This document shows positions 1,237 through 61,028 of a stretch of DNA of 64,000 bases, piece by piece. Position 1 is the stretch's first letter. Every line of letters begins with the position of its first letter. The notes under the pieces are model-generated. The model was given only the letters and a program-made list of their open reading frames with translations. It ran no database searches and was not told the DNA's origin. Origin of the DNA: Psammoneis japonica (Eukaryota); contig QPGO01000005.1 of assembly GCA_008632985.1 (NCBI GenBank), forward strand, positions 703,607-767,606, written 5' to 3'. A program made the translations under genes and the position numbers.

Positions 1237-4200
1237 CCCCAGAGCCACATGAAGGTGGGCTTTGGCAGATTTGCCATCTTGTTGTTGTTGAGACAAGCCA
1301 GCTGCGGTGCTGACAAGCTTGACTCTTGTCGTGCCAAACTTTTCTTCCAGCACCAGTGTTGCCACTTGGCTGCAGCAGATGTCATTTTCTTCAACTGCTT
1401 TTCTTGCCATCTTGTTGCAGGCTGCCCACACCATGTTCTTGAAGTTGAGCAGTGGCTGTCTCTGTCTGTTGCCAGTTTCAACAGCTTGTCAACAAACTCA
1501 ACCATCTGGTCAACGTGCAGGGGCACACTCCAGTTGGCCAGCTCAGCATGTGGCCAGGCTTGGTTGCCACCTTTTCTTTCTCAAACAGCTGATCAAATGC
1601 ATGTTGCAAAGCAGTGGCAGCTGGCTGCAGGGACACATGGGGCTTGTGACACTGCAAATTTGTGGGGACAATGCATTGATGCGCTGCACAACATGCTCAA
1701 AGAGCAACATTGTCAGCAGCGCCCCTTTCAAGAAATCTGCCTCAGTGCCCCACCCAAAAATCAACAACAATCATGTGATGTCTTGAGGTGCTGGCAAAGT
1801 TCAGCAAGTTTTGGTCAAGACCTGCAACACATCATCCTGCCTCTAAAAAGGAGTGCACACATCAAGCGCAACATCTTGTGACTGCTCACCACCCTGCTGA
1901 GCTGCTTGGCAAAACTTTTTTGTGTGCCAGATTAAAACCTGGGCTTTCCACCTTTCTCACAGCACCAAGGGACAAGTTTGTGGTCTGATGTCAAATGAGC
2001 CAAAAACAAAATCAACACTCAACCACTTCTTTGGCAGAGGAATGGTGCTGCACCTCCAAGCTGGACTCTGAAACATGGATTGGGCCGCATTTTACATGTG
2101 ATGCTTGGGGTGCTGGTCAGCTCTCACCAAGCCACTTGGCAGTGTGCTTTGCATGCGCTCTTTTCTTTGCGCACTTTTCCATCAGCAGCAGCCACTTTTG
2201 CAGCAATGCAATGCTTTTGTGCTGTTGTGCTCTCTTCCTTTTCAACAAGCACAGGAGTCAAGTGGCTGGCACATGGCACAAAAACACCAACAGCACAAAG
2301 ACCAGCTTTTGCCGGCTCTTCAACAAGTTGATTTTTGAGGGCCAACAAGCCAACAATTTGTTCAGAATTCTGGCAGTCTTCTGCACAACATGGCAGTTTG
2401 GACAGACCACTTGTGCACCCAGTTCTTGCATTTTTTTGTGCCTGCAGAAATTGTGCATGGCACAATCTCTGCAGAATGAATTGCACTGTCTGACTTTGGC
2501 AACAACTTCTCTCCATAAAAAAAAAATTGGCTCACAAAAGGACAAAGTGCACAAAATGAAAAGTGCTGCTGACAACTGTGACAAGCACCATCAGACAAAA
2601 TGGCCTCCACTTGCTCATTTTAAGGAGACAACTCCAGATGTGCTGCAGCAGCGTTGGTGGTTGAAATGAGGCAAGTGGAGATCAAAGAGTCAGACAGAAA
2701 ACATGGGGCTGCATTGTGCAAGAGGTTTTGCTGGATTTTTCCATGGGGTGAGGAAGCAACAGGAGTGGTGGTCCCCAACACCAACAAGGGAAGCATTGGA
2801 GATGGGCAAAGGACAGCATGAACACTTGCTAGATGCCTTGCTTGGGGGCTGGCTTGGATGGAATTGTCCTGGGGTGTCAAGTTGCTTGTCCATCACTGAA
2901 AAGACAGTGCTTGGTGGGTTCAAACACTGCATCATGGGCATGCCACTGCTGCAACTGTGGCTGAAGATGGCAAAGAAGTTTTCACAATGGCAAAGCAGGA
3001 GTCAATGGTGCATGCCTCAATGTTGCAGATTGGCGAGCCACTCTGGTGCAACAGCAGAGATGAGTCAATGCAGTGCCAGACTGCCAATGACAACACAAAC
3101 AATTCAGAGTGCAGCAAATGAGCAGCATTTGCCAGTTTGGAGCAGCTTGGCTTGAATCATTTGTTGCTGTTTGTTCATGCCTCAACAACCTTGAAGCATC
3201 TGGAGCAAATTGATGATGAAAAGGTTGCTGTGCAGATCAAGCCGGTTGCCACAAAAAGCATGCTGGGTGCCACAGTGGGGAGGCGCCTGCCCACACCAAG
3301 GATGTTCCAAGCTGGAAGTCAAGGATCTGAGGTTGCAAAGCAAGTCTTGATGAAAAAGCTGAAAAAAGAAGAGCCAAGCACCTCCAGATGAGGAGAGGGT
3401 GAATGACTTGGGTGAGCACATGCTGAAGGTGATGATTTTGGTGACCGCAATGGTGGAAAAAAGATGCGTGATTTGAAGAGTGATGTAAAGAGAAATGAGC
3501 TCACCTCAAATCATGCAAAGATGTGGTGGCCAAGCTCAGGAAGGATCATGATGGGTGGCCATGCCAGAAATGAGAAAGGAAATGCTTGAAGTCAGAAAAC
3601 AATCTGAGCTTGCCAGTGCAAAGGTGGAGCAGAAATGTGGCTTGTCATGTGTGCAGGACCCTTGTTGGTCAGTTGGATGCCTTGTTCTCTTTAAACAGCA
3701 AACTGACCCAGTGCACCCCAAGAAAGCATGACCAAAACCATGACTGTCAGCTCCAAAATCAAAAAATTGAAGACAACTCAGCTGCAGTCATGCAGAAGGA
3801 AAAGGTTGCAAAGGGGCACAAGCGGGCTGCAAGCTGCAAAACCTGGCCGCAAAAAGTCCTGCACGACAGCTTTTTACAAAGGCAGTGAAATTAGAAAGAT
3901 GAGAGAACTTCAAAGATGGCAAAAGTGTGCAATGCCACAGTTTCTTCATGCTCTGCCCCCTTTTTCCTTTTGTTTGGATTTGACACTTGATGACAGCACC
4001 ATCATGATGACAATGCTGCGAAGGTTTGCCGCTGCACTGTTGTCTGTTGTTGATGTGACATTGTTGTTTTCGTTTGTGCTGCAAGATTTGTGAGATGTCA
4101 TTGTTGTGTGGAAGTGTGCAAAAAGCCTTGGTGCACTTCAGATTGGCGCCACATCTTGTGCACAAAGTTCCTGTGTGTGCACGAGCAAAACCATCATGAC

Positions 4201-4780
4201 AACAGAGCCCGTCAGACTTTTTGGAAAAGCCAGCCATCCAGTTTTTGCTCTGGTCTGTCCATCCTTCAAAATGCCTGCAGAGTCTGGCAGGCTTTCCTCA
4301 CATGTCTGTGCCCACCTGAGTGAGCCCAGCACTTGTCTTGTGCATGTCACTTGCCCATTTGGCACATGGAGGGCGAGCATCAGATGTGTCAGATTTTGCT
4401 GTCAGAGAGACCGACCTCACCCACCATCAATGGCTCTGGTTGGTGAGCACCTTCTCTGCATTGTTTTGCAACTTGGCTGATGCTGCAGCTGCTTTTGAAG
4501 CTCTTTCTCCCACCAGATGTTGTGCTGTGCCTGCAGCTGGTCTCGCGCAACATTTTCTGAATGGGGGCAAACAAGTGGCTCTGCTCTGCATTTTGCATGG
4601 TTTGGAGCCAAAGAAAGAGAGCACCAAGGACAAAAAGAGAAAGCACAGTGGTGGCAAAAATTGCAGTGACAAGAAGGCGCGCTGCTGCCATGTCCTCACC
4701 AGCACTGTGCTTGCTGTGTGTTGCCACGCGGTTGGTGCCGGCTTGGCATGTGACAGTGGCAGAATGCGCTCTTTTTGAGA
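1237..4780. other. Degenerate block depleted of both TpA and CpG, with unidentifiable gene-like remnants
   Basis: By eye there are no TA dinucleotides in 1237-1843 and only about 5 CG. Translations are Cys/His/Gln-rich in all six frames. A signal-anchor-like remnant lies at 4389-4727 (-). Confidence 0.75.
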
Positions 4781-5122
4781 AAGGTGGGCAGTTCCCCCAT
4801 GATCATCGTGCTTCGGTTGTGGGGAGTGTGTTTTTGTTTGGGTGGGTGAAGGGGTTCGAACGGGAATCATTTCTGCATTCACAAACAACAGATGCACCGT
4901 GATCAGCTCTCCCTCGTGCGAGTGGTCGCGCGCGCATGCGGTGGGCAGGGCCCACATCATTGCAAGATCTAGCTTGAGATGACTTGACAAAAGTTGTGTG
5001 AGAACCGAGGAGAGAACCCATCATCGCTGATGCAGCCCAAACGGCAGGTCGTCAAATGGTGTGGGTTAGCGCACATGACGACGTTGCTGACGCAGACGGT
5101 CATCCTTTAAGCAAGTAGCCCC

Positions 5123-5151
5123 ATGTGCGCTATAAAGTTTATAGCGCACAT
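5123..5151. repeat. Perfect hairpin ATGTGCGCTATAAA-G-TTTATAGCGCACAT within subterminal repeats
   Basis: 14-bp arms with a 1-nt loop. The TGTGCGCTA-like motif recurs at about 5066-5076, 5187-5201 and 5209-5224. Confidence 0.85.
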
Positions 5152-5693
5152 AAAGAGCTGCTGACGTTATAGGGTCATTCTGCTTCTATGTGCGCTACAA
5201 ATCTCCCCTGTGTACGCTATAAAGTGACATCCACAATTATGAAGAAAGACAGAAAGGTAATGGGTCAATTTTCAGTTTGGATTACCGACATACATCGATG
5301 AATGTGCATGCTTCGCAGGCACCACGCAACAAACTGCAGCACCACAATGATGCGTGCCGCCGGTGTCTCACTTTACGGCATGATGTCTCAATGACGCTTT
5401 TGCCGATTTTCCTGTTTGTTTTTGATTTCTTAACAAAAATTGTGCAATTCATCCGAAAAGCTTGGCGCTGTGGCTTCTTGACTTTGCTCATGCCATCCTC
5501 ACAAAAGCAAGCCTTTGTTTCCTTGCCCTGCTTCTGCTTTCTGCTGCTGCTCACCTTGGGCTTTGGCATGTGCTGGAGATCATTTCTGGCCACCTCAGAT
5601 GCTGCATGCCTGTGAACTTGTCTGTGCTTTTTGTCTTTTCTTTTTGTTGTTGCTCTGGCTTCTTGCTGTTCCAACACACAGAGCACTGCTTTT

Positions 5694-5694
<1 letters not shown>

Positions 5695-5724
<30 letters not shown>
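5695..5724. repeat. (TGC)10 microsatellite
   Basis: Directly visible. Confidence 0.95.
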
Positions 5725-5727
<3 letters not shown>

Positions 5728-6924
5728 TTTGTTCATGATCATCATGCTGGGGAGCTCCTTGCCAAAGCTGCAAAGAGATGATTTTCCAGATCTGCAACAA
5801 GCATCAAAGCAGCAGTTCTTTGTGAGGCAGCTCTCAACAACAACTGGGCCAAACCCCAAAGTGGTGCTGAGAACACTTTGCAGTTTGCAAGGTGCTGCTT
5901 GGTCATGGACAACATGCAGAGTTTCTCAGCTGGCTTGCTGTGGTGGCAATGAGCTCTTGCTGGGTTGTGCTGTGTAGAGCATCTCAGCTGCTTGTGCTTT
6001 TGGCACCCAAAGCCGTCTCACAAGTTTCTCTTTTGGCATCTTGTTCATCCCTTCCACCTGTTTCTTCAAGATGCAGCATGCAGCAGGGCTCTCTGTGAGA
6101 GCTGGCATGTGGTGCCATCCTGGCTTCTCTTGCAGCCATCAGAGCTGTGGCTGGACACACTGGTTCTGCACAAACTCTCCTTGTCTGCATGCCACACTTT
6201 GTTTCACACCAAATTGTGGGGCAAATCTCAACTGGCACAGCTGTCACACACCCCAAAATGGCATTGAAAACACTTTGTGGGGTGCTGTTTGGCTGCGGAC
6301 AACCTTCGGCCTTCTTGGCTGGGGCCAGCTGGGGGGCAGCAGCCAGCTCTCTTGCTGCTGGGTCACAGCACAACACGCTGCAGAGCATCTCTCAACTGCT
6401 GCTTGCTTTTGGTGCCCAAAACAGTCTCACAATTTTCCCTTTTTGGCATTTTGTTCACCCCTTCCACCCAGTTCTTCAGTGCACAGCACACACCACTCTC
6501 CTCTCTGCACCCCGGCTCTTGCCCCTCTTCCTCTGGCTCTCTGCGCATCTTTTTTGCTTCTTGCTGCTTTGCCTTTTGTTGCAGCCACTGGTGCTGTGGC
6601 CAGACACTCTCTGTTTTGGCACAAGCTCCTTGTCTGCATGTTGCACTTTGCTTCAAATGTTGTTCCTTGTCCTTTTGAGATGAGATGCCTTTGGTGATGG
6701 GTGCTTGTGCAGAGTTGTTTGTTCTCCCCACTTTAACATCCGGGTCACTTTTTCGAGTTGACTCTCGCTTCGCTCGAGTCGAGTCAATCAAAACCTGCTG
6801 CCCACACCAGGTAAAAAAATGCCGCCCAAACCCAACAGTTTCCCATGTGTCTAATGCGTTGGTTGGCACACACATGTCAGAGAGGGCACACTCGGTCATA
6901 GAGCACATGTGCCTGTCTCACTCA

Positions 6925-6936
6925 CTCTTCCCCTCC
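6925..6936 (-). other. Polypurine tract of the Gypsy element
   Basis: Purine run (reverse complement of ctcttcccctcc) immediately before the TG start of the 3' LTR on the minus strand. Confidence 0.85.
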
Positions 6937-7032
6937 ATGGTGCAAGGCACACACGCACCATTGGAACCACTTGACTAAAATTCAAAACCCACCACGCACG
7001 GAGAAGGGAACCCAGACGTTGGGAAGAAACCC

Positions 7033-10000
7033 TCAACTCCGACACGGCACCACACGGCGAACATTGATTTGCTCGACAACGTGCAGTGCTCGCAGTGCCG
7101 AAACAGTCCCGTTGGCGTGGACTTGTGCAATTCGAAACGGACCACAAGCTCGTTCTTCTAACTTCCAAGGATCCACCAACTTGACCAACACATCTTGACC
7201 AACTGGGCAATCGCAGGAATGTCGCTTCACATTCTGTCGTCGTAGATTCTCGTCGATCAACACTTGTCGGTTGGCTTGTGTCGTTGCGAGGTCGGAGACA
7301 ATGGGCAGGTCCAAAATCACATCACGTTGGAACACGAGAGCTCCACTTGAAACACCCGTGGACCTTGAGTGGGAGCATCGCAAAGCACAAGAGGCTGCAG
7401 CAAGGGCATCGTCCACAATCTGTTCGGCCTGTTGAACATTCAGAGGTGGGTTGGCAACAACCACAGTGCGCAAGATGTCAGCTGCCGTCTGGTGCATTCG
7501 TTCACAAATGGAGTTGGCTGCAGGATTTCGAGACGTCATTGGAGCATCAGCAACACCCCGCTTGATTCAGTGACATTTGGAATTCCCAACCAATGAACTC
7601 TCCACCATTGTCATGGATGCATTGATTCGGTCTGGGGCAACGAGCTAACCAAAGGTTGCAAAAACTTGTCAGTCACATGCTGAGAAGTTTTGTTGTCAAT
7701 GCGTGCAAGTTCAGTCAATCCAGTGACAGTGTCAATGCAAGTGAGAGTGCTGAATTCAATCTCTTGATCTTGAATCGGGATCTTCCATGGTCCAATGAGA
7801 TCAACTGCTGCTTCCGTCCACGGAGCCAACGGTGCTTGACGTTGAGGCAACTCTCCATGTCCAGGACCCAGTTGTTTAAATCATTGACATGCATTGCAAA
7901 CAAATTCATTACAACGTCGCCGCAAAGCAGGATGGTGCATGTGAGTCCGGATGCTTTCATGCAATCGCACGACTCCACAATGGCCCAATGTGCGATGATG
8001 CCATGCAACCATGTCAGGCAACAATGCAGCAGGAGTGCAAATCTTCCAGGCTCCAGGCGGATCATTCAATTGCAAATGACAACAAATCAAGGGACGATGG
8101 TTCACGATCTTGACCACAAACTGCTGCGGATTTTGTTGTCTTTGCTGGTTCAGTTGGAGGTCTTCGAACTGGAGCTGTTGGATCCTTAGCATCTCAGCAG
8201 GATCCGGCATCTTGTCCAACGTTGGATGATTCAAAAAGCATTCAAATAATTCAGGCTTGTCAAGCAAAGAGGAAAAGACGGCGTGAGACTCATCAGAAGG
8301 ATCAACAGGAGCACGGCAACACTTGAACCTGCAAGCGCCCAATTCCAAATCTTCTTCGTCCTCGGTCGAATCCAACTTTTCAAAATGAATGATTTTTCCT
8401 TTGCATTCACCACTTGGCCCAAGGCTCTTCCCCTCCGAAGGCGGATCCACATGTGGCAGACGAGAAAAACAATCGGCGAGCACGTCATCCTTGCCTTCGA
8501 CACACTCAAACGCAGGTGCGAAATCTTCGAGGAACAGGCGCCAACGAAGGACGCGCTGTGTGTTCAAAGTGCAAAAGGTGAGATTTTTGTGATCAGCATG
8601 CACAGTGATGTCAGCACCAAGTGGCATCGAACGAAACTCCTTGAAGCACATGACGACAGCCAGCAGTTCTTTTTCCATTGTCAAGTGGTTTTGTTGAGCT
8701 GCCGAAAGCTTTTTAGACCAATGCGCCACTGGCTTGCCATCTTGATTGACAGCGGCGCCCATCTGGTGGTCTGATGCATCGGTGCAAACATGGAATGGTG
8801 GGCCATGGTTGGGGCAGGCCATCAATGCTTCCGCCGCGATCACTGCTTTCATTTCATCAAACGCTTTCTGACATGATTCCGTCCATTGGAACTGACTCTT
8901 GCCTGTCAATTCAGTCAGAGGTGCAAGTGGGTGAGAACAGCGAGGCCACACATTGCGACAATGAGTTGCTGCACTGAGAAACGATCGGAGTTGAGCAGTG
9001 TTCCGTGGAGGTTGCATTCGCAGAATCGCTTCGACCTTTTTCTTCCATGGTTCAATGCCAGTCAGAGCAAGCCAATGCCCTAAGAAATCGGTTTCTTGAA
9101 CACACCACTCGCATTTCAACGGATTAACTTTTAAACCATTCTCTTCGAGACGATGCAGCACCTTGTCAAGACAAGAGAGATGGCAATCAAAGTCAGCATC
9201 AAACGCTCCAATGTCATCAACATAAGTTTCGACATCCAAACCATGTGAGATCTTTTCAATGATGGACTGAGCAATGTCTGGAGCTGGCTTCAATCCCATG
9301 GCCATGCGACAGCACTGAAACTTTCCGCAGGGAGTTGTGATGGTGGCAAGCTCCTTGCTTTCATCGTCCAATTCCAAATTACAGTGGAACACAGTAAGAT
9401 CCAATTTCATGAAGAATTTGTAGCCCGCTCTCCGCTGCAGCACATCTTGAACAACCGGCAGAGGACACACTTTCCGCTTGAGGACCTTGTTGAGCTCTCG
9501 GAAATCTGACACCCATCACACTCGACCGTCCTTCTTCAGAGCAATGAAAGTGCCAGCTGCCCATTCCGCAGGTCCACATGGTCGCAACACACCGAGGTTC
9601 ACCAAGTGCTTTGGTTCCTTTTTGAACGCTTCTTCATTAACTTGAGCAACAGGAAACGGTTTTGAGTGACAAGGAACAGCGTTTTCATTCACTTCAAGGT
9701 GCACCTTTTCATGAGGATGATGGCCCAACGTTCCGTCAAACAAGGTCAAATGCTTCTCCAACACCGCTGGTGGTTTCTTCTTTTGTTCTTCCGTGAGATG
9801 GTCCAAATTCCGAACTGCCTCCGCTGGATCCGTTGCTTCATGCTTGGCATCAAGCACACAGGTGTCGCACCCGTCCTCGCATCCGCAGTCCGACTCGTCT
9901 TCATGATCTTCATCAAATTCATCCATTCGGTCTGAAGCAACATGCCAATTGTAGGACTTGGACCAATGACGAGGCTCCTTCATTGGGATCACGCGGTCTA

Positions 10001-10637
10001 ACCAATGCAGCGTTCTTGCATCGTAGTTCAAATTGAGGCCAATCTCATCCAAAAAGTCTCGACCCAAAATGACATCACACGCACACGGAGCATCGAACAC
10101 GTGAGCCACACAGCCGTCAACCCTCCTGGTCTTGTCGAATTCCGGTGGCACAATGTCGCTCAGGGCTGCCCAACGACCCGATTGGAAAGGACCTGCAATG
10201 GTTTGAAAAGCTCGGACTCCCTGTTCGTCAAGAGATGGCACGGCTCCTCGAGGTAAAACTTGAGACGAGATCATAGTGTGAGAACCACCTGAGTCAAACA
10301 AGACATGCATCACACGATTCAATTCGTGCCGCTGGATCGATTTTGCAACAAGCAGTGTAGATGGGACCAATGCAGTGCACGATGCTTGCGATTTCATTTT
10401 GGGGAGAGGAATGTGATGCTCAAATGCATCTTGATCGAACACGTCCCCCTCTTCATTCATGTAATTTTCTGCAGCATTTTCAAATTTAACAGGTGACAAT
10501 TCGTCAGGATTTTCAAAACAATCAAAAACAAAACATTCATCATTTCTTTCAGGTGGGACACAATCATTTTCATCAACAAATGCTTCTCTCACAGGCAATT
10601 GGGAGCACTCGGCTCCGGAGCATTCAGCTCCTTCTTC
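7033..10637 (-). pseudogene. pol: Gypsy pol (protease, RT, RNase H, integrase), disrupted
   Basis: PR 'VLFDSGGSHTMIS'; RT 'YVDD'; RNase H 'TDAS..EKELLA..DHKNL..LADCFSR'; IN 'H..LGH..CNAC', 'AVDLIGPW', 'NSICERMH', 'GPF'. In-frame TGA stops at about 9516 and 7881, plus a frameshift in IN. Confidence 0.93.
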
Positions 10638-11897
10638 TCAGAACTGCCGAGGAAACTGCCCGTCTGGCTGAAACCTCACCACACCTCCACAACGTGGAGG
10701 GCCTCGTCCGATCACATCGAAATGGCGCACATCACCACGAGGAGCTTCTCGAGCCTGGTTGTCATCATTCACATTGTCTGCTTGAGCAGCACATCCGTCG
10801 GCCTGACCTTGGCCTCCACGGTTGTTGTTTTCATCACAATGATGCTGACCACCACCTTGGTTGCCATTGTTGTTCTGGTGTCCATTGTTGTTGTTGTTGT
10901 GATGGGTGCCACGACCTCCTTGGTTCTGGTTGCCACGACCACCAAAGCGTCCACCGCCTCCACGGCCTTGTCCACGGCCTCCTTGGAAACGACCTCCACC
11001 TCGACCTCCACCGCCACAGCCTCCACCTCGACCGCCACGGTTTTGAGGCCCACGACAGTTGGGGTTGTTTGGATTGTCACAACACTGGCCCCACGCATGC
11101 CTTCCATGGTGCCATGGGACCGGACACGGATCGTTCGCCTTTGGTTGGCCCTTGCTGTCCTTCTTGTCGCGGTTGCCCTTTTTGTCACTAGAGTTCCCTC
11201 TGTTGCCATTGTTGGACTTGCGCTTCTTGTTGTCCTGACCATCGGCGAATGCCTTCTCATTGCTCATGTGGGCTTGGACATCCACCATCGAGTCCGTAAC
11301 AAGATTCTTGCCCGCACGAATGCAAGACTGCTGCCAGGTCAAAGGGAAGGTGTAGAAGATGATGTTTTTCTGCTCCTGCTCTGTGAGTTCAGGAACGGTT
11401 CCAGGCAAACGGTCAGTGTGACGAAACAAAGTTTCCATGCAATCAACATGAGTTTCTGATTCCACTGAACAGGGCTTTTTGCAAGCAGGCAAATGCATCT
11501 TCATCGTGTCGCGAGCTGTTGGTTTCACGCAGCGCAAATGGTGAGCCGAGACAGCCTGATTGAACCGAGCCACCGTCCGTTGATTCTGTTGGATGCCCGA
11601 GGCAACATTCTGCCATTTCGCCTCCGCAGCACCCTGAAGACAATCTTCGAAAGCATCAAATAATTCTGGTCCGGCATCACAATCGAGTTGTCTTGCCACC
11701 TTCCGGAACCCATCCTCCACATGCAATGATGATTCAATTCCATGCTCTCCTGTGAAAATGGGACACATTTTTGAAAGTTTAGCACCATCATCAAAGGTTT
11801 GAGTGAGCTTCACTTCCTGCAATTCTGAATCCACGAATTTGGTCTTATGCTCAATGCACGCTTTCTCCAAGGCTTCTTGACACATGGCGATGAACAA
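10638..11897 (-). CDS. gag: Gypsy gag (degenerate)
   Basis: 419-aa ORF upstream of pol with the knuckle-like 'CPVPWHHGRHAWGQC' followed by an RGG/N-rich tail. Confidence 0.8.
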   Translation of the reverse strand: MFIAMCQEALEKACIEHKTKFVDSELQEVKLTQTFDDGAKLSKMCPIFTGEHGIESSLHVEDGFRKVARQLDCDAGPELFDAFEDCLQGAAEAKWQNVASGIQQNQRTVARFNQAVSAHHLRCVKPTARDTMKMHLPACKKPCSVESETHVDCMETLFRHTDRLPGTVPELTEQEQKNIIFYTFPLTWQQSCIRAGKNLVTDSMVDVQAHMSNEKAFADGQDNKKRKSNNGNRGNSSDKKGNRDKKDSKGQPKANDPCPVPWHHGRHAWGQCCDNPNNPNCRGPQNRGGRGGGCGGGGRGGGRFQGGRGQGRGGGGRFGGRGNQNQGGRGTHHNNNNNGHQNNNGNQGGGQHHCDENNNRGGQGQADGCAAQADNVNDDNQAREAPRGDVRHFDVIGRGPPRCGGVVRFQPDGQFPRQF

Positions 11898-12212
11898 TTT
11901 CAGCGATCAAACACAATCAACAATCCACAAGATGAACGAAACAAGGCGTTCCCAATTGATCCACACAACGAGAACAATTGGTAACCAAACAAGAACGAAT
12001 TCAACAGTAGCAACACGAGCTTCGAGTTCAAACAAACGCTGCTCTGAATCGCCAATTTCACGAGCATGACTGCGCTGCTCTTCTGATTGACTTCGAATGA
12101 AATTTTCTGCACGCGCTCGTAAATGGATTTTCTCTCTCCTCGATGACACTCTTCGCATTGTCATAAAACTGATGATGCAATGAACAAGCTATAACAACGA
12201 CTGTAATTACAG

Positions 12213-12387
12213 TGCAAGATCTAGCTTGAGATGACTTGATAAAAGTTGTGGGAGAACCGAGGAGAGAACCCATCATCGCTGATGCAGCCCAAACCTAACG
12301 GTTTCCCGTATATCTAATACGTTAGTTAATATACATATATCAGAGAGGGCACACTCGGTCATAGAGTACATGTGCCTATCTCATTCA
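12213..12387 (-). repeat. 5' LTR (175 bp), TpA-rich and apparently unmutated
   Basis: TG...CA ends; matches the split LTR; flanked by TSD ATCAT. Confidence 0.93.
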
Positions 12388-12759
12388 ATCATGGCCCTCA
12401 CAGGGTTGCCCCCCCTTAAATAAAAATAATGCACTTCCTCATCACTGAATGTCACTCCTTCTCCAAGATAAACTGGAAGGCAATTGTTTTATGAGTCATT
12501 ATGTCTCAGATTGATGTCAATAAAGACTACAGAGACTCTCACAATGACTCAAACCAAAGTCTTTTTCAGCACATCGGAAGGCAGACAAAATTAGGGCACA
12601 TGTTTTTGTTCACACCTGATCACGTTCGGCATCGAGCAATTTCATTCGAACAAGGCAAAACGAAGTCCATTGAAAAGGAAGCTATTCCGGCTCGAAAGCT
12701 TTGAATCTCTTTGGGCTCGAACTGCTTGTTGTTTCATAATCTGTCGAACTCAGAAGAAC

Positions 12760-16214: not shown

Positions 16215-17636
16215 CTAGTCATCATCTTCGTCCTCCAGCACAGCCTGATTCGATCGCTTCTTGCTTGCTGATCCAACCTTGGATCGATTGATGATGACTT
16301 CGTCGTCGTCACTATCAGAATCATCACCCAGAACAATATCTTCATCATCGTCATCCTCCTCTTCGGCTTTGTTAATCTGTTGTCTCTTGCGTTTCCTGTC
16401 TGACAATTTCTGAGTGGCCCACTCGTCTTCTTCATCCAAATCATCATCCGAGTCATCTCCATAATCAAAGGCTTCCTCATCACGACCACGGCGTTTCAAA
16501 GCTCCGATATTGACAGAATCATAACGTCCATCATCCTCGTCTTCTTCCAAGTATCGTCTCGTCATTCCCGGCGTAGAACGTCTGCCACCTCTGGCCCTGT
16601 TTTTGCGAGCATTGTCCTTCTCCATTTCTTCCTTGATTTTGATGCGTTCGGCCTTTAACTTTTCTGGATCTTGCTCCGTCACGTATTCGGCGATGCGTGC
16701 CTTTTTCATGTTGCGCTGTCTCACGGCAATGGTCAAACTGCGATGAGCCTCGGATTGAAGAGACGACGGACGAGCCGTAAGTCTGGAAGTAATGGGTCCT
16801 GCGCATTCCAGTACGGTTCCTCCTGGCGTGCGCTCTTCTTTTGATTCTTCTCCCGTGGTACTGTAAGACGCCTTTTGACTCTGATAGAGATATCCATTGA
16901 TGCCTGCAAAGCCAGCAGGAGTCTTCGTCTTGAGGGAATCCACTTCAAATACCTCGGAGCCAACATGAAGAGTGTAGGATCCGTCGTCCCATTGAACAAT
17001 CCGAGTATTCGATTCTCGTACCAACTTGTCGTTGTCATCCCGTTCCAACTCTCCATCCGAGTCCCGCTTGTACCTCCACCGAATCATGTGAAGCACGTTG
17101 CTGTATTCTTCCTCTTCCATCGAGGCAGAATAAGTCTCTTGATCAAAAGCTTCTGGCTGAATTCCCACCAGCATACCTGGTAACTTGGTCATGTGTAGTG
17201 ATACACCCTCGGGAGGCTTCTTAGTCTCCAACACATGCATAAACGTGGGCTTTGAAGTTTCAGACAAGGTCTTGTTGCTCGCACCGTCAGAAGAAACGGC
17301 AGCGTCCATCTCCTCTCTGGCCCTTTCCACTCGAGGATCCGACCTCCCGACAATTCCTGCTTCTGCATCATCAAATTCCGCATCACCTTCGTCATCGTCG
17401 CCATCCGCTTTGGCGTCTGAATCATCATCGTCGTCTTGTATCTGACGCTTGGGTGCTTCTGCTTCAGACGCCTTTTCTTCTTCTTGTTGGTTTCCTTTTT
17501 CTTCTTCTACTTCTTCCACGGGACTTGTATCCATGGCGTCGTCACTTCCACCAGACTTTTCCTTCTCATTCTTATCGCGACCGACTGACTCCTCATCGGA
17601 GGAGTCTTCCGCAAACAGCTCTGCCATGGACGCCAT
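16215..17636 (-). CDS. LEO1: PAF1 complex subunit LEO1
   Basis: 'ESNTRIVQWDDGSYTLHVGSE' Leo1 signature, 'IRWRY', 'RPSSLQSEAH', acidic flanks. Confidence 0.9.
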   Translation of the reverse strand: MASMAELFAEDSSDEESVGRDKNEKEKSGGSDDAMDTSPVEEVEEEKGNQQEEEKASEAEAPKRQIQDDDDDSDAKADGDDDEGDAEFDDAEAGIVGRSDPRVERAREEMDAAVSSDGASNKTLSETSKPTFMHVLETKKPPEGVSLHMTKLPGMLVGIQPEAFDQETYSASMEEEEYSNVLHMIRWRYKRDSDGELERDDNDKLVRESNTRIVQWDDGSYTLHVGSEVFEVDSLKTKTPAGFAGINGYLYQSQKASYSTTGEESKEERTPGGTVLECAGPITSRLTARPSSLQSEAHRSLTIAVRQRNMKKARIAEYVTEQDPEKLKAERIKIKEEMEKDNARKNRARGGRRSTPGMTRRYLEEDEDDGRYDSVNIGALKRRGRDEEAFDYGDDSDDDLDEEDEWATQKLSDRKRKRQQINKAEEEDDDDEDIVLGDDSDSDDDEVIINRSKVGSASKKRSNQAVLEDEDDD

Positions 17637-17966
17637 GGTGTTACGCCGCTGTGTTGTCGAGGGATAGGTCGCGGTCACCACCACGGGATCTGTGGGTCGT
17701 GGTACTGATTCTACAGTACTGTACGGAGATCTTACGTATCGATTCTGTGGCACGGGCTTACGCACGGGCAGACGGTTGTTTTCGACTGGCCGCCGACCGT
17801 AAACATACCTACTATGGAAACGACAAGCCGACAAACGACTGCGATAACAATGTTGTGAAAAAAGAGAACGAACGGCACTTATTAGGGAGCAGCTTTACCT
17901 GGTATACGACATACGACACGTCCATGACGATTATTCATAGAGGGCTGTGGTAGTTGTTCGCTTAAA

Positions 17967-20199: not shown

Positions 20200-22024
20200 A
20201 TGTCGATGTTGTTGGAAACTACAATTGGAGATGTAGTGATTGACTTGGATATCGAGGGTAGTCCAGAGCTCGCTCGGAATGTTTTGAAACTAGCCAAGGC
20301 TCGCCACTGCACCAACACGCTGACTCACAACATTTTGCCTCAACGACATTGTCAACGCGGAGACCCCAAGGGCAATGGCAGTGGCGGCGGCTGTATCTGT
20401 GGACTGATTGACGCTACAACAAACAAAACGAGCATCGAAGAGAGTAAAAAACGATTTTTGAAAACAAAAGGACGCTTCTTGAGCAAGGAGGAACTGCAAC
20501 AGCGAGGGCGGGTCGTGGCAACTGAAATGAAAACGGGGTGCCGGATGCCATTGGATCTCAGCTCATAATTACGTTGGAACAGGGACCTTTGCAAGCTCTG
20601 GATGGGCTCATGGTGGAATCATCGAACAGTGCTGAACAACAGCAACAGCAATTCTTGTCGTTGGGAACGGCAGCGGAGGATGAAGACGGTGTGCCAGACA
20701 AGCTTCAAGCGGCTCATTGCGATGCCGATGGACGACCGTTTGTGGGTGTGCACATTGTGCGTGCTTTGGTGATTTCTGATGCATTTGATGATCCTCCTGG
20801 AATGGAAGACTTGCTCAAACATCGTGGCGTTGCAATGGAAGATGACAGAGTGACGGCGTCTCCTGAACACATTCGTCCTCCAGAAGAAGTCGCAGAGCAC
20901 CGCATTCAAGCAAATGAAGTGGACGAAGCGGAGGAGGAAGACGAAACTCACGAAAAGGCTGGACAACGAGAAATGGAGATTCACAAACGAGAAGACAAAT
21001 CGCGTGCCATCATTTTGGAAATGTTGGGGGACTTGCCATCTGCCGGTGAGTTTGCACTTTTGCAAGCGTTCGACTTGTGTGTGTTTTTGCTTCTTGTTCT
21101 CTTAGCTGCACTGTGTTTTGCTTTACAGACATCAAGGCTCCCGAGAATGTTTTGTTTGTTTGCAAATTGAATCCAATGACGGATGTTGATCCAGACGTCA
21201 AGGCTGAAATCATTCGAGACAATGAAGCTGGCGCGTCTCTCCAGTGTGCTTTTGTCTAGTTTGCCGACAAGCAGAAGTGTGTGGAGGCACACTTTAAAAT
21301 GAAGAGTGCACTTGTCGATGACCAGAGCATCAAGGTGGACTTTTCACAGAGTGCAGCAAAAGTGTGGAACAAGCATGTGCAGCGAATGAGAGCACCGGGA
21401 GGACCACAAAAGTCTCCCAAACGGAATCGACAGCAAGGTGGCAATGGTCAAAGGAGACACAACAGTCAGTCGGGACATCAGCAGCAACGCCCACCACAGC
21501 GTCGTAACGATTGTCGCAACGGAGACAGAGAAGTGCGCAGATCGCCACCGGGAGACGCAAGGGATGGTCGTCATGTGCGACAGATGCAGAGACCGTGGTG
21601 ATCACGGACGCGACAGGCCGGCATCAGGTGGGAATCGACACCACGATGATCATCAAAGAGACGGCTCACCGCATTCACACAGGCAACACAACAATGACGA
21701 TGACCACTGCAATTGACAGCGCAGACTTGACAAAGAGGATCATTCAATGCAAAGAAGCTGTTCCCATTCCTTCGACAGATGCTCACCCGGCCAGTCGCAG
21801 CAGTGAGAGTGATCTTAGTCGCAGCCCCAAACATCGGAGGAAGAAACATCACAAGAAACGCCACAGAGATCGCCATCGACACAGACACCGTGATGATGGA
21901 GGTGACGATCGTCACAGTCGGTGCAGACACCACCATGATTGAGAGGATGAAGCACCGTCACGACAAGAAGCACAAGAGGAAAAGGAAACGCCACAGCAGG
22001 ACTCGCAGTGTCAATGAAAGCTAG
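20200..22024 (+). pseudogene. PPIL4: Cyclophilin-RRM protein PPIL4/CYP59, frameshifted and TpA-depleted
   Basis: 'MSMLLETTIGDVVIDL', '[29 protein letters not shown]' (retained intron about 21046-21128), 'EAHFKMKSALVDDQSIKVDFSQS', RS/K-rich tail. Frameshifts, a stop and an RRM deletion. Confidence 0.88.
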
Positions 22025-22029
22025 AGTGA

Positions 22030-23640
22030 TTAAATCTTAGGTTTGTGTTGGCATCAGCAAGGTCGGAGCTCAGCTCCCCCACCCATTGCGCTCTTGCATC
22101 ACTTGTGACTGTTCTTGCGTGTCGAAAATCAAAGTGAGGGTGTCCTTGCGCAATGGCGATTGAATGGAAACCAGGCACGTCTTGTTCTTCAGACAACATG
22201 TGTGCACACTGAGAACAGTCATTTGCTCCAGCATTCTCTTGTTCACAGCCGGCCTCTTTGTTGTTTCTGTCGCACTGAGTGATGCAGCTGCTTGCCCAAA
22301 GAGCGACACACCCGACATGGCCGAAGCGACATCAATGTGAAGTCGTGCAAACAACCCAGTGCCAAAACAGTCCAGCACATGTCATCACAAGCCTCAGGGA
22401 ACAGCCCCACCGCAACGAATGTCCCAGCGTGGGCCCCAGGCAAGGAAGCATGCAACGACATTGAAAGCACTGCGACCGTCATCGCAGTCCATGGATGTGC
22501 ACACGGAACAACCAACACGCAAGCATGGATTGCTGCACTGTGCTTTCAGTCTTTCTGCTTCTCTTTTGCAAACGTTCAAAGTGGTGTTTCGAATGTTTGG
22601 AACACTCCAATGCCAAAATTTGACAGAGATCGGTCGCGCAGGATGGACGCGTTCCAGGTCCAGGTGGGACCTCGCACCACTGAACTGTGACATCGACAGT
22701 TTTTTGAGTCTCGTCGTATGTCGCGCACGTAGATTTCTACGTGATTTTTTCGACATTTTGTGTCATTTTACGGTGCACTTGTTGAGCGATCCGTCCAACA
22801 ACTTTTGACATTTTTTGTTACAGCGCGATTCTATGATGTCTCTAGAATCGCGTAGGGCAGGCGAAGTTGCAAAAACGTCGAGTGGCAAGAGGCATAATTG
22901 CACCACAAACTTGGGCGTTTATTTGATGTTGAAGATAAATGCATCCATTAATTAAATTCTTGTACTGCGGAGCTCGCACGCAGAATTCTACGGGCCCAAT
23001 GTCACACGGAGTCCCACCTGGGGCTGGAACGCGTCGATGACATTGCCTCAAGAGCACCATCAAAAGATGGAGCTCAAGCTTTTGCGCATCTTCAGAGTGA
23101 ACTGTCACTCAAAAAAAAGCAAAAGGGGGGATGCACTGCGGAGACAACAAGAAAACTTGCGAGTCAACCGCGTGCTGAGCCAACACTCCCTGTGAGTGAA
23201 GACTTGCCGCACCATGTCACTGATGTGACGGAAAACCCCAAACCCCGCATTCCGTCAATGGCATGATCTGCTTGGCGAGCTTTTGCTGCTTTGCAGACGA
23301 ACGCTGCTGTCTGTTTCAACAGCTGTGACCTGACGGGTCAAGCGAACAGGCAACTTCCTGCGGTCAAAGACACAGGAGTGGCATGGACTCCAGGCCGGAG
23401 ACACGCGTTCGATTTGCCCCGACCTCCGGACTCAACTGGCAACACCTGCGCCACCTGGAGACAACACACCATCAAGCAAAATGAGTTGTGGAATGCCAAA
23501 CGAGAGCGAGTGCTCAATCCAGGGGAAGGGCGAGCCATCCTTGGCGATTGCGGCATTCAAGCTTGGCGAACAACAAACACATCGTGCGAGACGACGAGTT
23601 GTGATTGAAAGCGTGAAAGAATTTCCGAGAGATTTTGCAT
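22030..23640. other. Largely TpA-depleted degenerate segment (membrane-protein-like remnant at 22070-22560 on -, then hairpin-containing TE-like DNA)
   Basis: TA is nearly absent in 22045-22710 and 23000-23645. Hairpins at about 22726-22743 and 22824-22852. No family recognised. Confidence 0.45.
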
Positions 23641-26053: not shown

Positions 26054-29000
26054 CTAATGTTGTTCAATGCTTTCTTGGAAGGCACATGCCATCACGTCTG
26101 CAACAATCCATGGAAAGCTAAACAGAGCCACAGGTTTGTTCTTGATGGCCCGAGAGTGGCTACCGGCGCCCATTTCGGGATGATAAGTGACAACGTAATA
26201 GGCGGCGCTGAGCATGCGGGCCCACTTCTTCAACTTGCATACGTGTGGCGTTGAAAGCCTGCCATCGGCACTGAATTCTGCTCTGTCACCTCCAGTTATG
26301 CTTTTCGTTGTAACAGCCATTTCGATCTGACCGATTAGGTCTTCCTCTAGCTCCTTCTGAATGTCCTCACCGTCGACGCAGCGTACAGAGTCAATATGAT
26401 CAGCCTTTTCTAAAACGCTACGAAAAAAGTTCTGTCGGAATTCCATTCGCAACTCACGGGTTTGGCGCTTGACTTCTTCACAAAACTTGTAGCGTCCCCG
26501 TTTATGCAGTCTGTGATATTTTAGAATGCATCCGGTGAGGAGCTCTCCCTCGCTATGAAGTTTGTAGCGGTTCATCAAGGCTATCAATCTATCTTCGTAG
26601 CCATAACGATGCTCGATAGCAATCGACAACAAGGCCGATTGGTCGTTGCCAATGTCGAATCCGAGGATCAATGGAATGTCGGGCATGTATATTCGTGAAA
26701 GAAGCTTGTTGTAGTCTTCTTCTTGACGAGTCATACAAGTTATTTGCCCATGTCTGTCGTACCTTCGACCGGCTAGAGCAATGCACTTTTCCCCAGACTC
26801 CTTATCTTTCCGAAGCTGGTTTGTGATTTCATCGTACAGCTTACCAACTACACTGTCACAGTGATATGACATTGTGTCGGCTCGTTCTCGCCAGTGAGCC
26901 CGTGGGGCGTCTTTCGGAATCTTCACTGTGTCTGGAACTTCAGCGGGGATACCGCTTTTGGGAAAATCCACAGCAATGGAGTGTAATTCGGCAAGGCGTA
27001 AACACTCCTGACAATCCGCACCCTTCTTTGCGGCGTGGTCAAGCCATAGCATGGAAATGCGACCCAAGTTATCAGCCTTGGCGTGGTTGAGAAAATGCTC
27101 AATTAGATGACTGTCTTCGATCTTATCCACTTCGGGGGCCTCACCTTGTGCATCAAAGTTGTGTGGTTTGCGGTTTACCTCTTGAAGAAGTTGAGAGCAG
27201 TAGTTTACTTTTTTGCTGGTCAAAGACAACAATGTGCCGCCCGAAGCCCGCCATTCCTTCTCTGACACCTTCTTACAGTTGTTCCACTTGTTCAGAAAGA
27301 GAGATTCATCCCAGCAAACGGCAAATTGGTCACCATCCAAGTCACTGCCACTCATTTTGTCTGCTTCAGGTCGCAGGCCACGCTGCGAAAATAATATCAT
27401 ATTTCGGTGGCTATGCAGCTCCGGGATGTCAATAGCCAACAACATTCGGACATCTCCGGGATGCATAACAGGGTGTTTTGTAACCATTAAAGGCCCCGTT
27501 AGAATCTGGAAGGGTTCGTCTTGGCAAGTCGGATCTTTTTCTGGAGAAGCTCCCAAAGGTCGCAGCTGGACAAAAACACAGCCCTCGGGAATCAATATTG
27601 TTTCATCGAGGCCACCCATTAGCACTGCACCTTTGTCGACAAATATCCTGCTCTTCTTTCGAAGCTGCATCAGATGGTGGCTTCGAATTGCGTGAGCACA
27701 TGAAAATAAGAAAGGTTCTTGATGAGGAGAAAGACCGCAAGAGATCATGTGTATAAGCATCGAGGTCATGCTACTGTCGGGACCGCTGAGACGTGGGATC
27801 ATCCTTGAAGCCTTCTCTCCACACATACTAGCATTTCATTCAGATCGTCTAGCATTCGTTGCTGCATCCGAAGGAAGGTTATATCGGGCACGTCATGGAC
27901 ACCGAAGAACATGACGATTTAAATAGTAAGGCACGTGGCTTCCGACGGAGATCACTTCCACGTGCCTGTATGGCGCCTTAAATTTCACCATACTCGGCCG
28001 AAAGAGAATCTTGCTGTTGCGGAGGTAGAGGGAGGGATAACGACGCCGCAATGCTTTGAGATTCCATGCTGTTAGTGTACCTTTAGCTCCACCGCATCGT
28101 ATCTGAATAATTGAGACGACACTGGTATTCTTCGGTGCAAAAGGAACACTTCTCAGCAGCGTTCGCAACATCGTTTCACAAATGATACCTGTTCCGTCGG
28201 AATGGCACATTTCCTTCCCGTCAGAAGCGGTGCACAAGATGTCGGGTAGTGCGTCGCACACCCGGAGTCGCGAGGATGAATGAGAATTGATGGAGGCGTC
28301 AGTGTCAACATGGGGTGCTTGGACCGTTGTTGAGAAACATTGGCCCATCCGAGCAGCATATTTTGACGGAGTTTTGCACATTGTGAAGTCGCCCATCCAG
28401 CGTCTAACCTCATCTATTCCACTTCCATTCGGACTGCTAACCATCCACAGCGAAAGCTCCTTCAGTTGACTGGAAGAATAAGACAGAAAGCGATAATGCA
28501 TGCCATTGATTTCGAAACCACCAAGAATAATAGATGAAATTCTGCTGCAAACCCATCTCGATAGCTCATCGTTGTACAACCTGTCTCCATTTTCCTCTCC
28601 GATCGATACACGTAAGAAACTAAGTTGTGAATAGCCTTTGACATTAACAAACTCACGCAGGACTCGGTTACTCATTTCTATCCCAAAGCCACACGCAACG
28701 ACACGAGTCGGCGTTACAAGGGCGCGTGGCACCTCCATGCAGTAAGGTGGAACTTGAGCTGACTTATTTTCATCATCGACGTCTTCCTCTTCTTCTAACG
28801 GCAGTATCAACAAGTCAAGCACACCAGCGGGATGAAGAGTATGCCCCTGCATTCCCAGCATTGACGTCAAAGCCTGATAATCGCCAATTTCGATAGCGTG
28901 AGCAGGACATCGTATTGAATCCGTCGTGAATCACCACAAGTACAATTTACTCACCCGACGACCATGTTCGGGATTTGATCGATTGAGAATGTCACACATA

Positions 29001-48000: not shown

Positions 48001-49081
48001 ATGAATTGATGCTACCAGAGCAGGTCTTGACTCCAGATTTCGCGGGTTAGTTGATAAACGGATGTTACAGGTGCTGTCCACGGGCCTGAGGATATACGAG
48101 TGGGTGGGTGTTGACTGATGCGTTGCAGCTCTCGAAGGCGATGACATTGAGTTGGATCTACGGACAATGCACCTATCCAGGCTTTGTGTGAGAGCGCCTG
48201 TATTCGTAGTGTCAGTTAAGTGAAGGACTGAGAATTCCGGTGGCAAGTCATCTCCGTAGTCCAATGCGTTCCAGTAAACCGCAAAGTGGTTGAGTTGCGC
48301 CATCTTACGAATGATGGTTCCTCCTCCTCCTCTTCCTCTGCTGGCTTAACATCTGCCACGCCTTTCTCTTGTGACGGGTTCTTCATGACAACTTGGAAGT
48401 CATCTGCCTGAACGTGTAGACTCTCCAACGTCATTCCGCATGCAAATGGACTAGATGGCACCGAATCGACGTCTTCCAGGCGAATGTGGACGTCTCTTAT
48501 ATGAATTTGTAAATTCTCCAAAACGTCCTTTAGTATTCCCTCTGCGATACGCTTGTGAAAGAAGCCGGACAATCCGGAATGAGAAGATGTTGACGAAGTG
48601 GTGCTCTCGTTCACAGCCAGAACCTCTTGCTCCAATTCCTTTCGTCGCTGTGCAATTGCGGCACGTTCAAGGGCATCATCATCGTACTCGTAGCTTGTTC
48701 GAAAAAGAGCGTGCACGCCATCAACCACAACAACTACTACCGCTTCATTCTGCAAAACTCTAGGGTCGTTGGTAGAAGTAAAATTTCGGGGAGGTGACGA
48801 CTTGGACCCGAGCTTGGCCCAGGGAACCGTGATTTCGACCCTTCCGAGTGAGCAATGTACGAGCTCTAGCGGCTGTCCTTTGCCTCTCAGAATCTCATTA
48901 ACAACCTCCTTTCGAAGCTCGAGGTTCTCCAGCGAAACGAACCCGCTCCAAACACCAAGCTGCGTCCACGACGATGATGATGTTGTCTTTTCTTTCGTGA
49001 AGTGGAGCCATCACTTGTCGAAGACACAAAATACTTGGAAAGGAGGCGGCTCAACAATTTACCCGCAAGTTTCTCAAACAT
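36088..49081 (-). CDS. VPS13: VPS13-family lipid transfer protein (several frameshifts, at least one intron)
   Basis: Chorein N-terminus 'MFEKLAGKLLSRLLSKYF..GVWSGFVSLENL', 'IHIRDVHIRLED', 'WEPLVEPW', 'FRIEN..FAWDEP'. About 13 kb of coding sequence in consecutive ORFs; intron about 44001-44081. Confidence 0.9.
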
Positions 49082-51910: not shown

Positions 51911-52132
51911 ATTTTAGAGTGTACGAGTAAGGGAATACACTAAAGTCAAAGAGAAGCATGTGGTCGCGCGACGGGAGCAATTCAGTCGTGTTTGTGGAGA
52001 AAAATGGGTTTTGAGCTCTCTACCGTCACATGCCGCAATGGCCGCATGGCCGCCTCATTCACCCCCGCAACCCGCAAAACTCCATTCCAATTCTTCGTCT
52101 AGACTACCGTATCGTTCGTCGCGTCTCCCGCC

Positions 52133-60739: not shown

Positions 60740-61028
60740 AAGTGGGGGTAAGAACGTCAAAGGCGTCTGACATGTTTGACACAATGAGGTCTTTCTAGAC
60801 ACTTCAAAGTGGTCAATTAATGGGATGACCAAAAGGCGCCAAAAAATTGAGTTGTGCATGGCATGCTGTGCACATGCGCGATTTTGTCGACAATTCGCAA
60901 AAATTTCTGTGCATGGCATGCCATGCACAGCGCGAGCAGGGCTAGCTAGAGTCTGCCGTTTTCATTGCCATTGTTGCGATTCGTTGCGATTGGACTTGCA
61001 TGGCACACGCTGTCGGCATCATTTGTCC

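Follow-up and report, generated by a model that had tools for sequence, protein, structure and literature searches.

Near-complete loss of TpA dinucleotides in a Ty3/Gypsy retrotransposon and other repeats of the diatom Psammoneis japonica

A 64,000-nucleotide stretch of contig QPGO01000005.1 from Psammoneis japonica (positions 703,607 to 767,606, here called the window) carries on its minus strand, at 4961–12387, a Ty3/Gypsy long terminal repeat (LTR) retrotransposon in which most TpA dinucleotides have become TpG or CpA. Comparison with other copies in the genome revealed that TpA was lost rather than gained, after insertion, on both strands, by near-pure transitions with a preference for TAY, and that the loss is confined to repeats of several families with partial sparing at the edges; these features can be regarded as very well supported. 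The best explanation as a whole, with a probability of about 0.6, is a host mutator acting at TpA on silent transposon DNA.

Loss of tyrosine from the pol frame

The observed/expected (o/e) ratio of TpA was 0.05–0.15 over 7–12 kb of the window compared with 0.42–0.89 over 24–60 kb, with 31 TpA in the whole of 7001–12000 against 30–69 per kilobase over 24–60 kb. The original prediction, made from the letters of this region, was that conserved tyrosines of Gypsy Pol had become cysteine or histidine through loss of TA, and it quoted seven motifs. All seven are present and share one minus-strand frame: GKFQCCRM (first base 9326), YVDD (9224), FHVCTDASDHQMG (8795), PVAHWSKKL (8732), QQNHLTMEKE (8696), VHADHKNL (8603) and FECVEG (8510). 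The frame bearing them contains 7 Tyr codons among 1624, compared with 74 Cys and 73 His; GTA, ATA and TAA are absent, and CTA and TAG occur once each.

Conserved tyrosine columns were defined in the reverse transcriptase (RT)/RNase H frame as those with Tyr in at least 60% of 120 Pol relatives from outside the genome. There are 16 such columns, of which 14 read Cys or His in the window and the other 2 read Tyr. Among the replaced columns is one that is naturally His in 34 of 119 relatives. Control columns (conserved F, W, D, G, P or H) are kept at 76 of 88, confirming the predicted replacement. Three details of the motif list required correction. The His of VHADHKNL did not come from Tyr, this position being His or Phe and never Tyr in 8 aligned outside relatives; the TA-derived change in this motif is T to A. 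The first Cys of GKFQCCRM replaces a conserved Tyr but the second does not, and YVDD, quoted as a survivor, retains its Tyr but has Val in place of Ile and is therefore also mutated (of 13 outside relatives, 11 have YIDD and 2 have FIDD or FLDD). Intact, expressed relatives with Cys or His at the conserved columns, named beforehand as the finding that would speak against the prediction, were not encountered: many Cys/His were seen in just 2 of the 120 relatives, both of which look erased themselves (0.0% and 0.8% Tyr), and no more than one was seen in P0083 or P0104, the two relatives derived from transcriptomes.

A TA-rich sister copy, L031, which is 91% identical to the window element and is itself broken and partly mutated, was used as the reference for comparison. 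Its 45 Tyr codons are read in the window as 20 Cys, 19 His and 6 Tyr. Tabulation of replacements gave Y>C/H as the commonest change, as anticipated, followed by T>A (15), which arises from TA steps spanning codon borders. Across 1381 codons the TA changes gave 93 missense, 54 silent and no stop changes, CpG decay gave 24 missense, 18 silent and 1 stop, and other changes gave 64 missense and 82 silent. No sense codon can be converted to a stop by TA>TG/CA, so the proposal of inactivation by missense rather than by stops describes the TA changes well. The window copy is further damaged by two CGA>TGA stops (9518 and 7883), by a change of frame near 7660 and by an insertion that splits its 3' LTR, and because of this additional damage the missense load is not the sole cause of its death.

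Direction of the change

Searching the genome assembly (G000; 91.4 Mb, 597 contigs) with the element gave 54 matches, and 30 loci were examined. TpA was poor at 24 of these (o/e 0.03–0.12), and 6 loci, from five copies, were near normal (0.46–0.60). The multiple alignment was built without the partial copies L015 and L018–L030.

Alignment of the window with L031 covered 201 TpA of the latter, of which 81 are TG, 94 CA and none CG in the window, with 24 kept and 2 otherwise changed. The TpA is thus TG or CA at 175 of 201 sites, compared with the opposite change at 6 of 711 TG/CA. When the TpA common to the TA-rich copies L031 and L016 (n = 94) were followed through the 15 TA-poor copies, 90 were mixed, with TG in some copies and CA in others, and the pooled states were CA 678, TG 521, TA 165 and CG 9. 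Mixing was also found at 85 of the 89 sites where L031 has TA but L016 has TG or CA, and at 75 of 538 control TG/CA columns. TA was taken as the ancestral state because, CG excepted, it is TA from which TG and CA both lie one transition away, and because TA encodes the conserved Tyr. L031 has been partly mutated too, since 24 of the 48 sites with TA in L016 and TG or CA in L031 are mixed; the rates of TA loss are therefore, if anything, underestimates.

In the reverse polarity, the TA-poor copies would be ancestral and the TA-rich ones would be products of fungal-type repeat-induced point mutation (RIP; CA>TA and TG>TA). A naive three-way polarisation with L016 as outgroup, taken at face value, appears to agree, as it assigns 42/479 CpA>TpA changes to the L031 branch. 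These changes are misplaced because L016 is itself half erased: the sites are parallel changes in the outgroup, where both TG and CA occur among the TA-poor copies as described above, and the Tyr conserved in outside relatives is encoded by the TA-rich states. The reverse polarity consequently has next to no probability, and the predicted direction, TA loss on both strands, is upheld by the direct DNA comparisons.

Timing, strands and independence between copies

A retrotransposon inserts with two LTRs of the same sequence. When the 16 TpA in the 5' LTR of the window element are compared with the 3' LTR, 13 are TG or CA in the latter, all one way, which accounts for 13 of about 18 differences between the two LTRs and indicates that the mutation struck after insertion. 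Strand bias is small, with a TG share of 0.37–0.50 per copy and a fitted strand hazard ratio of 1.1, and no strand-coordinated runs beyond chance were detected in 15 copies (z −2.2 to 2.1). Given the LTR differences and the changes on both strands, the target was chromosomal DNA and not a transcript. Pairwise agreement between copies at changed sites averaged 0.61 with a maximum of 0.72, the maximum lying within the permutation range, so that site preferences account for most of the agreement. This suggests that erasure took place in each copy by itself and that erased copies had few or no descendants, as would fit inactivation of the elements.

Sequence context and CpG decay

The specificity of the change was measured over the aligned copies, which are related so that the counts are not independent. 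Adenines following T were changed to G at 937 of 1203 positions, compared with 288 of 6265 after A, 170 of 6135 after C and 115 of 5023 after G (2.3–4.6%), while transversions at TpA numbered 9 of 1203. The fitted relative hazard by the base after A was 3.3 for C, 3.2 for T, 1.5 for G and 1 for A. Accordingly few RTAY sites survive (3 of 795) compared with YTAR (102 of 407), and none of the 32 TpA surviving in 6930–12000 of the window is RTAY. The available text on TadA-derived DNA editors describes a similar preference for YAY over YAR (PMC10188366, PMC12528748).

CpG has decayed alongside, at 51 of 249 sites between L031 and the window. Per copy the CpG loss was 14–70%, compared with a TA loss of 87–97% in 15 copies and 49% in L016, and was slower than the TA loss in 15 of 16 copies. 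Diatom transposable elements sit in CG-methylated islands with H3K27me3/H3K9me, as described in the portions available of PMC9998398, and the CpG decay of the element fits this setting. Decay of DNMT5-methylated diatom transposons (PMC9998398, as far as available) has the same target class, also ends in TG or CA and runs in parallel here, but the CpG route is a passive C>T change and the source of the CGA>TGA stops, while the TA process makes none. Locus L102 (G000:C5:303-310 kb) has hardly any TpA or CpG left (o/e near 0 for each), the end state of the two processes.

Distribution of TA erasure in the genome

The four TA-poor blocks of the window are all repeats, their edges are sharp within a few hundred bases, and the Pfam-bearing host genes of the window are TA-normal. 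Fourteen further stretches totalling 140 kilobases, unannotated and taken at arbitrary places on large contigs rather than randomly over the assembly, gave a bimodal distribution in which 60 of 140 kilobases had a TpA o/e below 0.2, 9 were intermediate and 71 were at 0.35 or above. Among other Gypsy copies, three of four loci were partly or fully erased.

The LTRs at block edges were often spared. Over 15 copies (L016 excluded) the 5' LTRs kept 92 of 209 TpA and the 3' LTRs 39 of 198; in the window element, 14 of the 14 TpA common with L031 remain in the 5' LTR and 2 of 13 in the 3' LTR. LTRs beside TA-normal DNA keep an average of 7.4 of 14 TpA (n = 13) compared with 2.1 for the others (n = 17, p 0.0004), and retention tracks the neighbourhood (rho 0.51, p 0.004) in a test that kept three poor LTR alignments (L012 3', L014 3' and L017 5'). 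In copy L002 the spared LTR is the 3' one. Pairing between copies explains this behaviour less well than would a chromatin domain with a gradual boundary, although promoter activity of the 5' LTR may contribute to the sparing. All targets examined are repeats, and the edge sparing argues against pairing without proving it.

The process was active recently, since a young family (94–97% identity) already shows the TA spectrum, with A>G at 52 of 393 TpA adenines compared with 30 of 7928 other adenines. In a 1.78-kb repeat (window 5043–6819 and L068–L076) the interior is TA-poor in all ten copies, indicating that this repeat spread after erasure, while its first 300 bases are TA-rich, contain palindromic stretches and have been erased copy by copy (2–29 TpA left).

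Erased proteins were also found beyond this genome. Four Gypsy proteins of other public assemblies bear the scar of TA loss: P0180 and P0148, found among 120 hits, and P0219 and P0220, found among 150 hits that included P0180 again. P0180 contains no Tyr in 699 residues and has Cys or His at 14 of 16 columns. Among the candidates scored, neither P0180 nor P0220 matches G000 at more than 56%, and both therefore come from other genomes. TA erasure is thus not confined to the present genome, although most relatives are intact. Queries made from TA-rich frames, which are biased to intact sequences, returned no erased protein among 77 (lowest Tyr 1.3%) and no erased locus among 8 metagenome loci (TpA o/e 0.42–0.78).

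Proposed mechanism

In the preferred explanation, a Ty3/Gypsy element inserted into older repeat DNA, and a host process then changed the chromosomal DNA at TpA, where A>G on one strand or the other appears as TG or CA. Each TpA site changed once, independently in every copy, until about 90% of the TpA was lost. The adenine would be deaminated to hypoxanthine in the DNA by an enzyme of the TadA/ADAT fold and the change fixed at replication. The TAY preference moderately favours this chemistry; the LTR edges point to the silent chromatin of transposons as its likely address, rather than to pairing between homologous copies, and the codon changes make the disabling of autonomous elements through missense load without stops its probable effect.

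Several observations weigh against this explanation. The CA context is at background here (2.8%), though TadA editors accept CA, and a T lesion in RTA would give counts identical to an A lesion in TAY; TpA being palindromic, the damaged base is not one that sequence alone can name. The extent of TA loss follows that of CpG loss only loosely in the 16 copies (rho 0.41, p 0.11), and L016 has lost 56% of its CpG but 49% of its TA, so that 5-methylcytosine chromatin alone does not predict TA loss. Repeat-rich, more AT-rich regions largely escape erasure (G000:C265 at about 40–72 kb, C160, C196 and C402). The spread of pairwise agreement between copies was 0.048, compared with at most 0.046 in 500 permutations, so a little shared history remains among them. 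The deaminases found in G000 resemble an ordinary set, and no fusion to a chromatin reader was seen in the deaminase frames read.

Alternative explanations

Other routes to the same changes in DNA were considered. With the same targeting, errors of a polymerase eta-type enzyme (A>G at WA) could arise while repair patches in methylated repeats are filled; AA is indeed the second most changed context (4.6%, compared with 2.3% for GA and 2.8% for CA), and the CpG decay shows that repair substrates exist in the blocks. Polymerase eta tracts, however, contain many transversions and same-strand clusters, whereas about 99% of the changes at TpA adenines are transitions (937 to 9), the TA rate is about 17-fold above AA and strand-coordinated runs are missing, making polymerase errors an unlikely source. 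A thymine lesion, in which the T of TpA is oxidised in repeat DNA (to 5-hydroxymethyluracil, 5hmU, or a further product) and T>C results from its mispairing with G, would account for the counts equally, as A in TAY and T in RTA are the same sites. Dinoflagellate 5hmU is enriched on repeats, with a TA/TC preference in older work according to the available text of PMC11071213, although that work found no motif around 5hmU in the species it studied. In the present genome T>C at TpC does not exceed background (the GA class, 2.3%), and no match to Tet_JBP (PF12851) was returned from G000 in a search that was not exhaustive, a weak point; taken together, a thymine lesion appears quite unlikely. Modification of the TpA adenine in silent repeats, for example by N6-methylation, followed by deamination or miscopying would, by analogy with methylation in CpG decay, account for the strict dinucleotide specificity. 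Eukaryotic N6-methyladenine (6mA) is typically found in ApT and is not known to favour TpA, and ApT is not depleted over 7–12 kb (o/e 0.93–1.01). The accessible part of PMC12695648 links eukaryotic 6mA to permissive chromatin, and such a two-step route is decidedly improbable.

The remaining explanations are less probable still. ADAR-type editing of the element RNA prior to reverse transcription would draw on the two A_deamin genes of G000 and on a favoured upstream U (Mettrop et al., bioRxiv 10.64898/2026.01.13.699255, available text). Such editing would change the transcript strand only, but both strands are changed nearly equally, the LTRs of one insertion differ though they are identical after reverse transcription, and one end of the 1.78-kb repeat is erased to differing degrees at each insertion. 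RNA editing is thus very improbable; an A_deamin enzyme acting on chromosomal DNA falls within the preferred explanation. Artefacts of base-calling or assembly at modified bases in long reads would be consistent with the best public run containing only 0.42 of the sampled words, and this run might itself be the source sample. No RNA data set was listed as containing these words, which carries no information on expression. Of 2400 contig pieces of run X1, 489 matched the window at 99% or more, which is modest support for the sequence since X1 may be the source sample. Stronger objections to an artefact are that each copy has its own TG/CA pattern, that identical LTR sequences are unmutated at one locus and erased at another, and that proteins in separate assemblies bear a matching scar; the B. 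natans signature described below also came from Illumina data, according to the available text. An artefact is accordingly barely credible. Untargeted avoidance of TpA or codon bias could be suggested by the under-representation of TpA throughout the window, including the 24–60 kb portion, but is at odds with the bimodal kilobases, the sharp block edges and the destruction of conserved Tyr, and has a negligible probability. The copy-to-copy comparisons rule it out.

Candidate enzymes

The deaminases found in G000 comprise ADAT2, a TadA-like gene, two A_deamin genes and dCMP-, guanine- and RibD-like genes, some of these labels resting on motifs that we take to be diagnostic. The ADAT2 gene at G000:C26 is a candidate by its motifs HAE, PCIM and the Asn in GCRNDRFGG. 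We take this Asn to be the position noted by Mettrop et al. and to be general in ADAT2. An ADAT3-like inactive subunit was not among the deaminase search results, the search being not exhaustive. The two A_deamin (ADAT1/ADAR-type) genes lie at L051–L054 (G000:C40, C79); in ESM Atlas the second had an ordinary A_deamin domain, with a recognition value below the Atlas threshold. A broken deaminase-like gene is present at the edge of a TA-erased block (L050, G000:C151). A dCMP deaminase-like gene with two tandem deaminase domains occurs on two contigs (L041/L042, G000:C41 and C317), which are probably alleles. Cytosine methyltransferase genes were found in fully TA-erased DNA (L131, L132, L133 and L140; G000:C301, C297 and C28), with 0–0.5% Tyr in the long frames seen and about 30–55% likeness to intact ones over most aligned pieces; these genes are perhaps carried by mobile elements.

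Comparison with known systems

The closest known case is that of Mettrop et al. (bioRxiv 10.64898/2026.01.13.699255), whose available text describes, for Bigelowiella natans, TpA>TpG/CpA mutation at approximately 1000 times the background rate in two regions of integrated viral DNA, one of them shown to be single-copy. That preprint proposes an ADAT2-type deaminase and suggests transposons as further targets, with transposable element domains (DDE, RT) enriched in TpA-poor coding sequences. In the diatom, A>G/T>C changes likewise occur almost exclusively at TpA, on both strands and nearly always as transitions, and are confined to mobile, foreign-type DNA with the host genes of the window spared, so that by analogy the process appears to work like the B. 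natans hypermutation. The targets differ, being NCLDV and virophage DNA in a rhizarian alga there and diatom transposons here. New mutations were measured in B. natans, where TpA o/e is 0.45 in the larger region, whereas here the process is near saturation and known from comparisons between copies, and affects about 40% of the sampled DNA rather than two viral regions. The main text of the preprint, so far as available, gives no flanking rule and does not mention diatoms, while here TAY is preferred over TAR and the timing from LTR pairs and the edge sparing are added. In the literature searched, which included few subscription journals, no report of TpA hypermutation in diatoms was found and the preprint was the only algal case; new here are another lineage, transposons as the main target and the near saturation.

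Fungal RIP changes C to T, creates TpA and stops, and is triggered by pairing of duplicates. It resembles the diatom process in that dinucleotide-specific transitions on both strands destroy repeats after insertion, but the chemistry is opposite, since TpA is destroyed and no stops are made. C>T at CpA occurred at 33 of 6093 sites in TA-poor copies. The duplicates are not affected alike, as seen from the unequal LTRs of the window element, and at block edges the LTRs, which are the most repeated part, often escape. The process is therefore not RIP. The TadA-derived editors ABE7.10 and ABE8e-YA (PMC10188366, PMC12528748, available text) also convert A to G in DNA with YAY over YAR, but are engineered and accept CA as well as TA, whereas TA alone is changed here; this is a likeness of context and not of membership.

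It is possible, though tentative, that diatoms and Bigelowiella share an old defence pathway in which a natural double-stranded DNA adenine deaminase is directed to silent chromatin, where it converts TpA throughout the whole transposon load. Such a pathway, spread over several SAR lineages, would be an adenine counterpart of RIP that works without copy pairing. It would also provide a natural editor of DNA adenine, whereas editors of this sort have to date come mainly from engineering TadA. To our knowledge the known repeat-directed mutators act on cytosine, and an A>G mutator over roughly two fifths of the sampled DNA of a 91-Mb genome would add a second chemistry to genome defence. Diatom genetic tools make a hunt for the enzyme feasible, with the TAY rule as the fingerprint to match. 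Near-zero Tyr with high Cys/His provides a cheap screen of protein databases for the process. In such genomes dating by LTR divergence fails, as 13 of about 18 LTR differences in the window element are TA changes, and the long open frames left in erased repeats may be misread as genes.

Organisation of the element and other features of the window

The element was assigned to Ty3/Gypsy from the pol order RVT_1, RT_RNaseH and Integrase_H2C2 (Pfam, the last below cut-off) and from the presence of two LTRs of the form TG...CA, a polypurine tract and a target-site duplication. Its closest solved structure match is Ty3 Gag-Pol (E 4e-41) and its named protein relatives are diatom sequences. The order LTR-gag-protease-RT-RNase H-integrase-polypurine tract-LTR and the 5-bp target duplication are those of diatom Ty3/Gypsy elements, and the element is ordinary except for its mutations.

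All element parts lie on the minus strand. The 5' LTR (12213–12387) retains all 16 TpA and adjoins TA-normal DNA, and the leader between it and gag (11907–12212) is part-erased, keeping 7 of 15 TpA compared with L031. The gag-like frame (10638–11906) has 422 codons stop to stop with 1 Tyr and gave no Pfam match. Its terminal TGA (10638–10640) is common to 17 of 17 aligned copies, in frame with pol, and is a natural stop; this conserved in-frame TGA suggests stop read-through or separate initiation of pol. The protease and the start of RT (9516–10637), ended by the stop at 9518, had no Pfam match in the window's own frame, and the matching L031 frame gave a weak Asp_protease_2 match (E 5e-4, below cut-off). 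RT, RNase H and the integrase zinc finger, with all seven motifs, occupy 7881–9515, ended by the stop at 7883. The integrase core and tail follow at 7033–7880 and contain the frame change; the matching L031 frame has an rve match (E 7e-5, below cut-off).

The polypurine tract (6925–6936), read from the sequence, is directly upstream of the 3' LTR. The latter consists of an inner piece (6820–6924), where 12 TpA of the 5' LTR are TG or CA, and an outer piece (4961–5042), with 1 further TpA>CpA, separated by the 1.78-kb repeat of another family (5043–6819), which has nine other copies at 94–97%. This repeat ends in an A run and has a duplication of approximately 8–13 bases at its insertion site. 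The target-site duplication ATCAT of the element is at 4956–4960 (left copy) and 12388–12392 (right copy, read from the sequence). The element inserted in an older TA- and CG-depleted repeat (1300–4955), pieces of which occur elsewhere in the genome at 67–79%. A second TA-depleted block (20300–23600) consists of repeats of other families, and a third (61000–62000) is a repeat with nine near-full copies at 93–96%. Elsewhere in the genome, the regions that escape erasure contain L031, L032, L034–L039 and L098, although copies elsewhere on the contig have undergone erasure.

A host RNA-dependent RNA polymerase gene (26054–28930, minus strand; PF05183, in two frames) is TA-normal, and as a member of the small-RNA machinery its product could guide silencing. 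Ordinary host genes of the window include a VPS13-like gene (36579–48345, minus strand), a PPR protein gene (52103–54676, plus strand) and Leo1 (16215–17894, minus strand).

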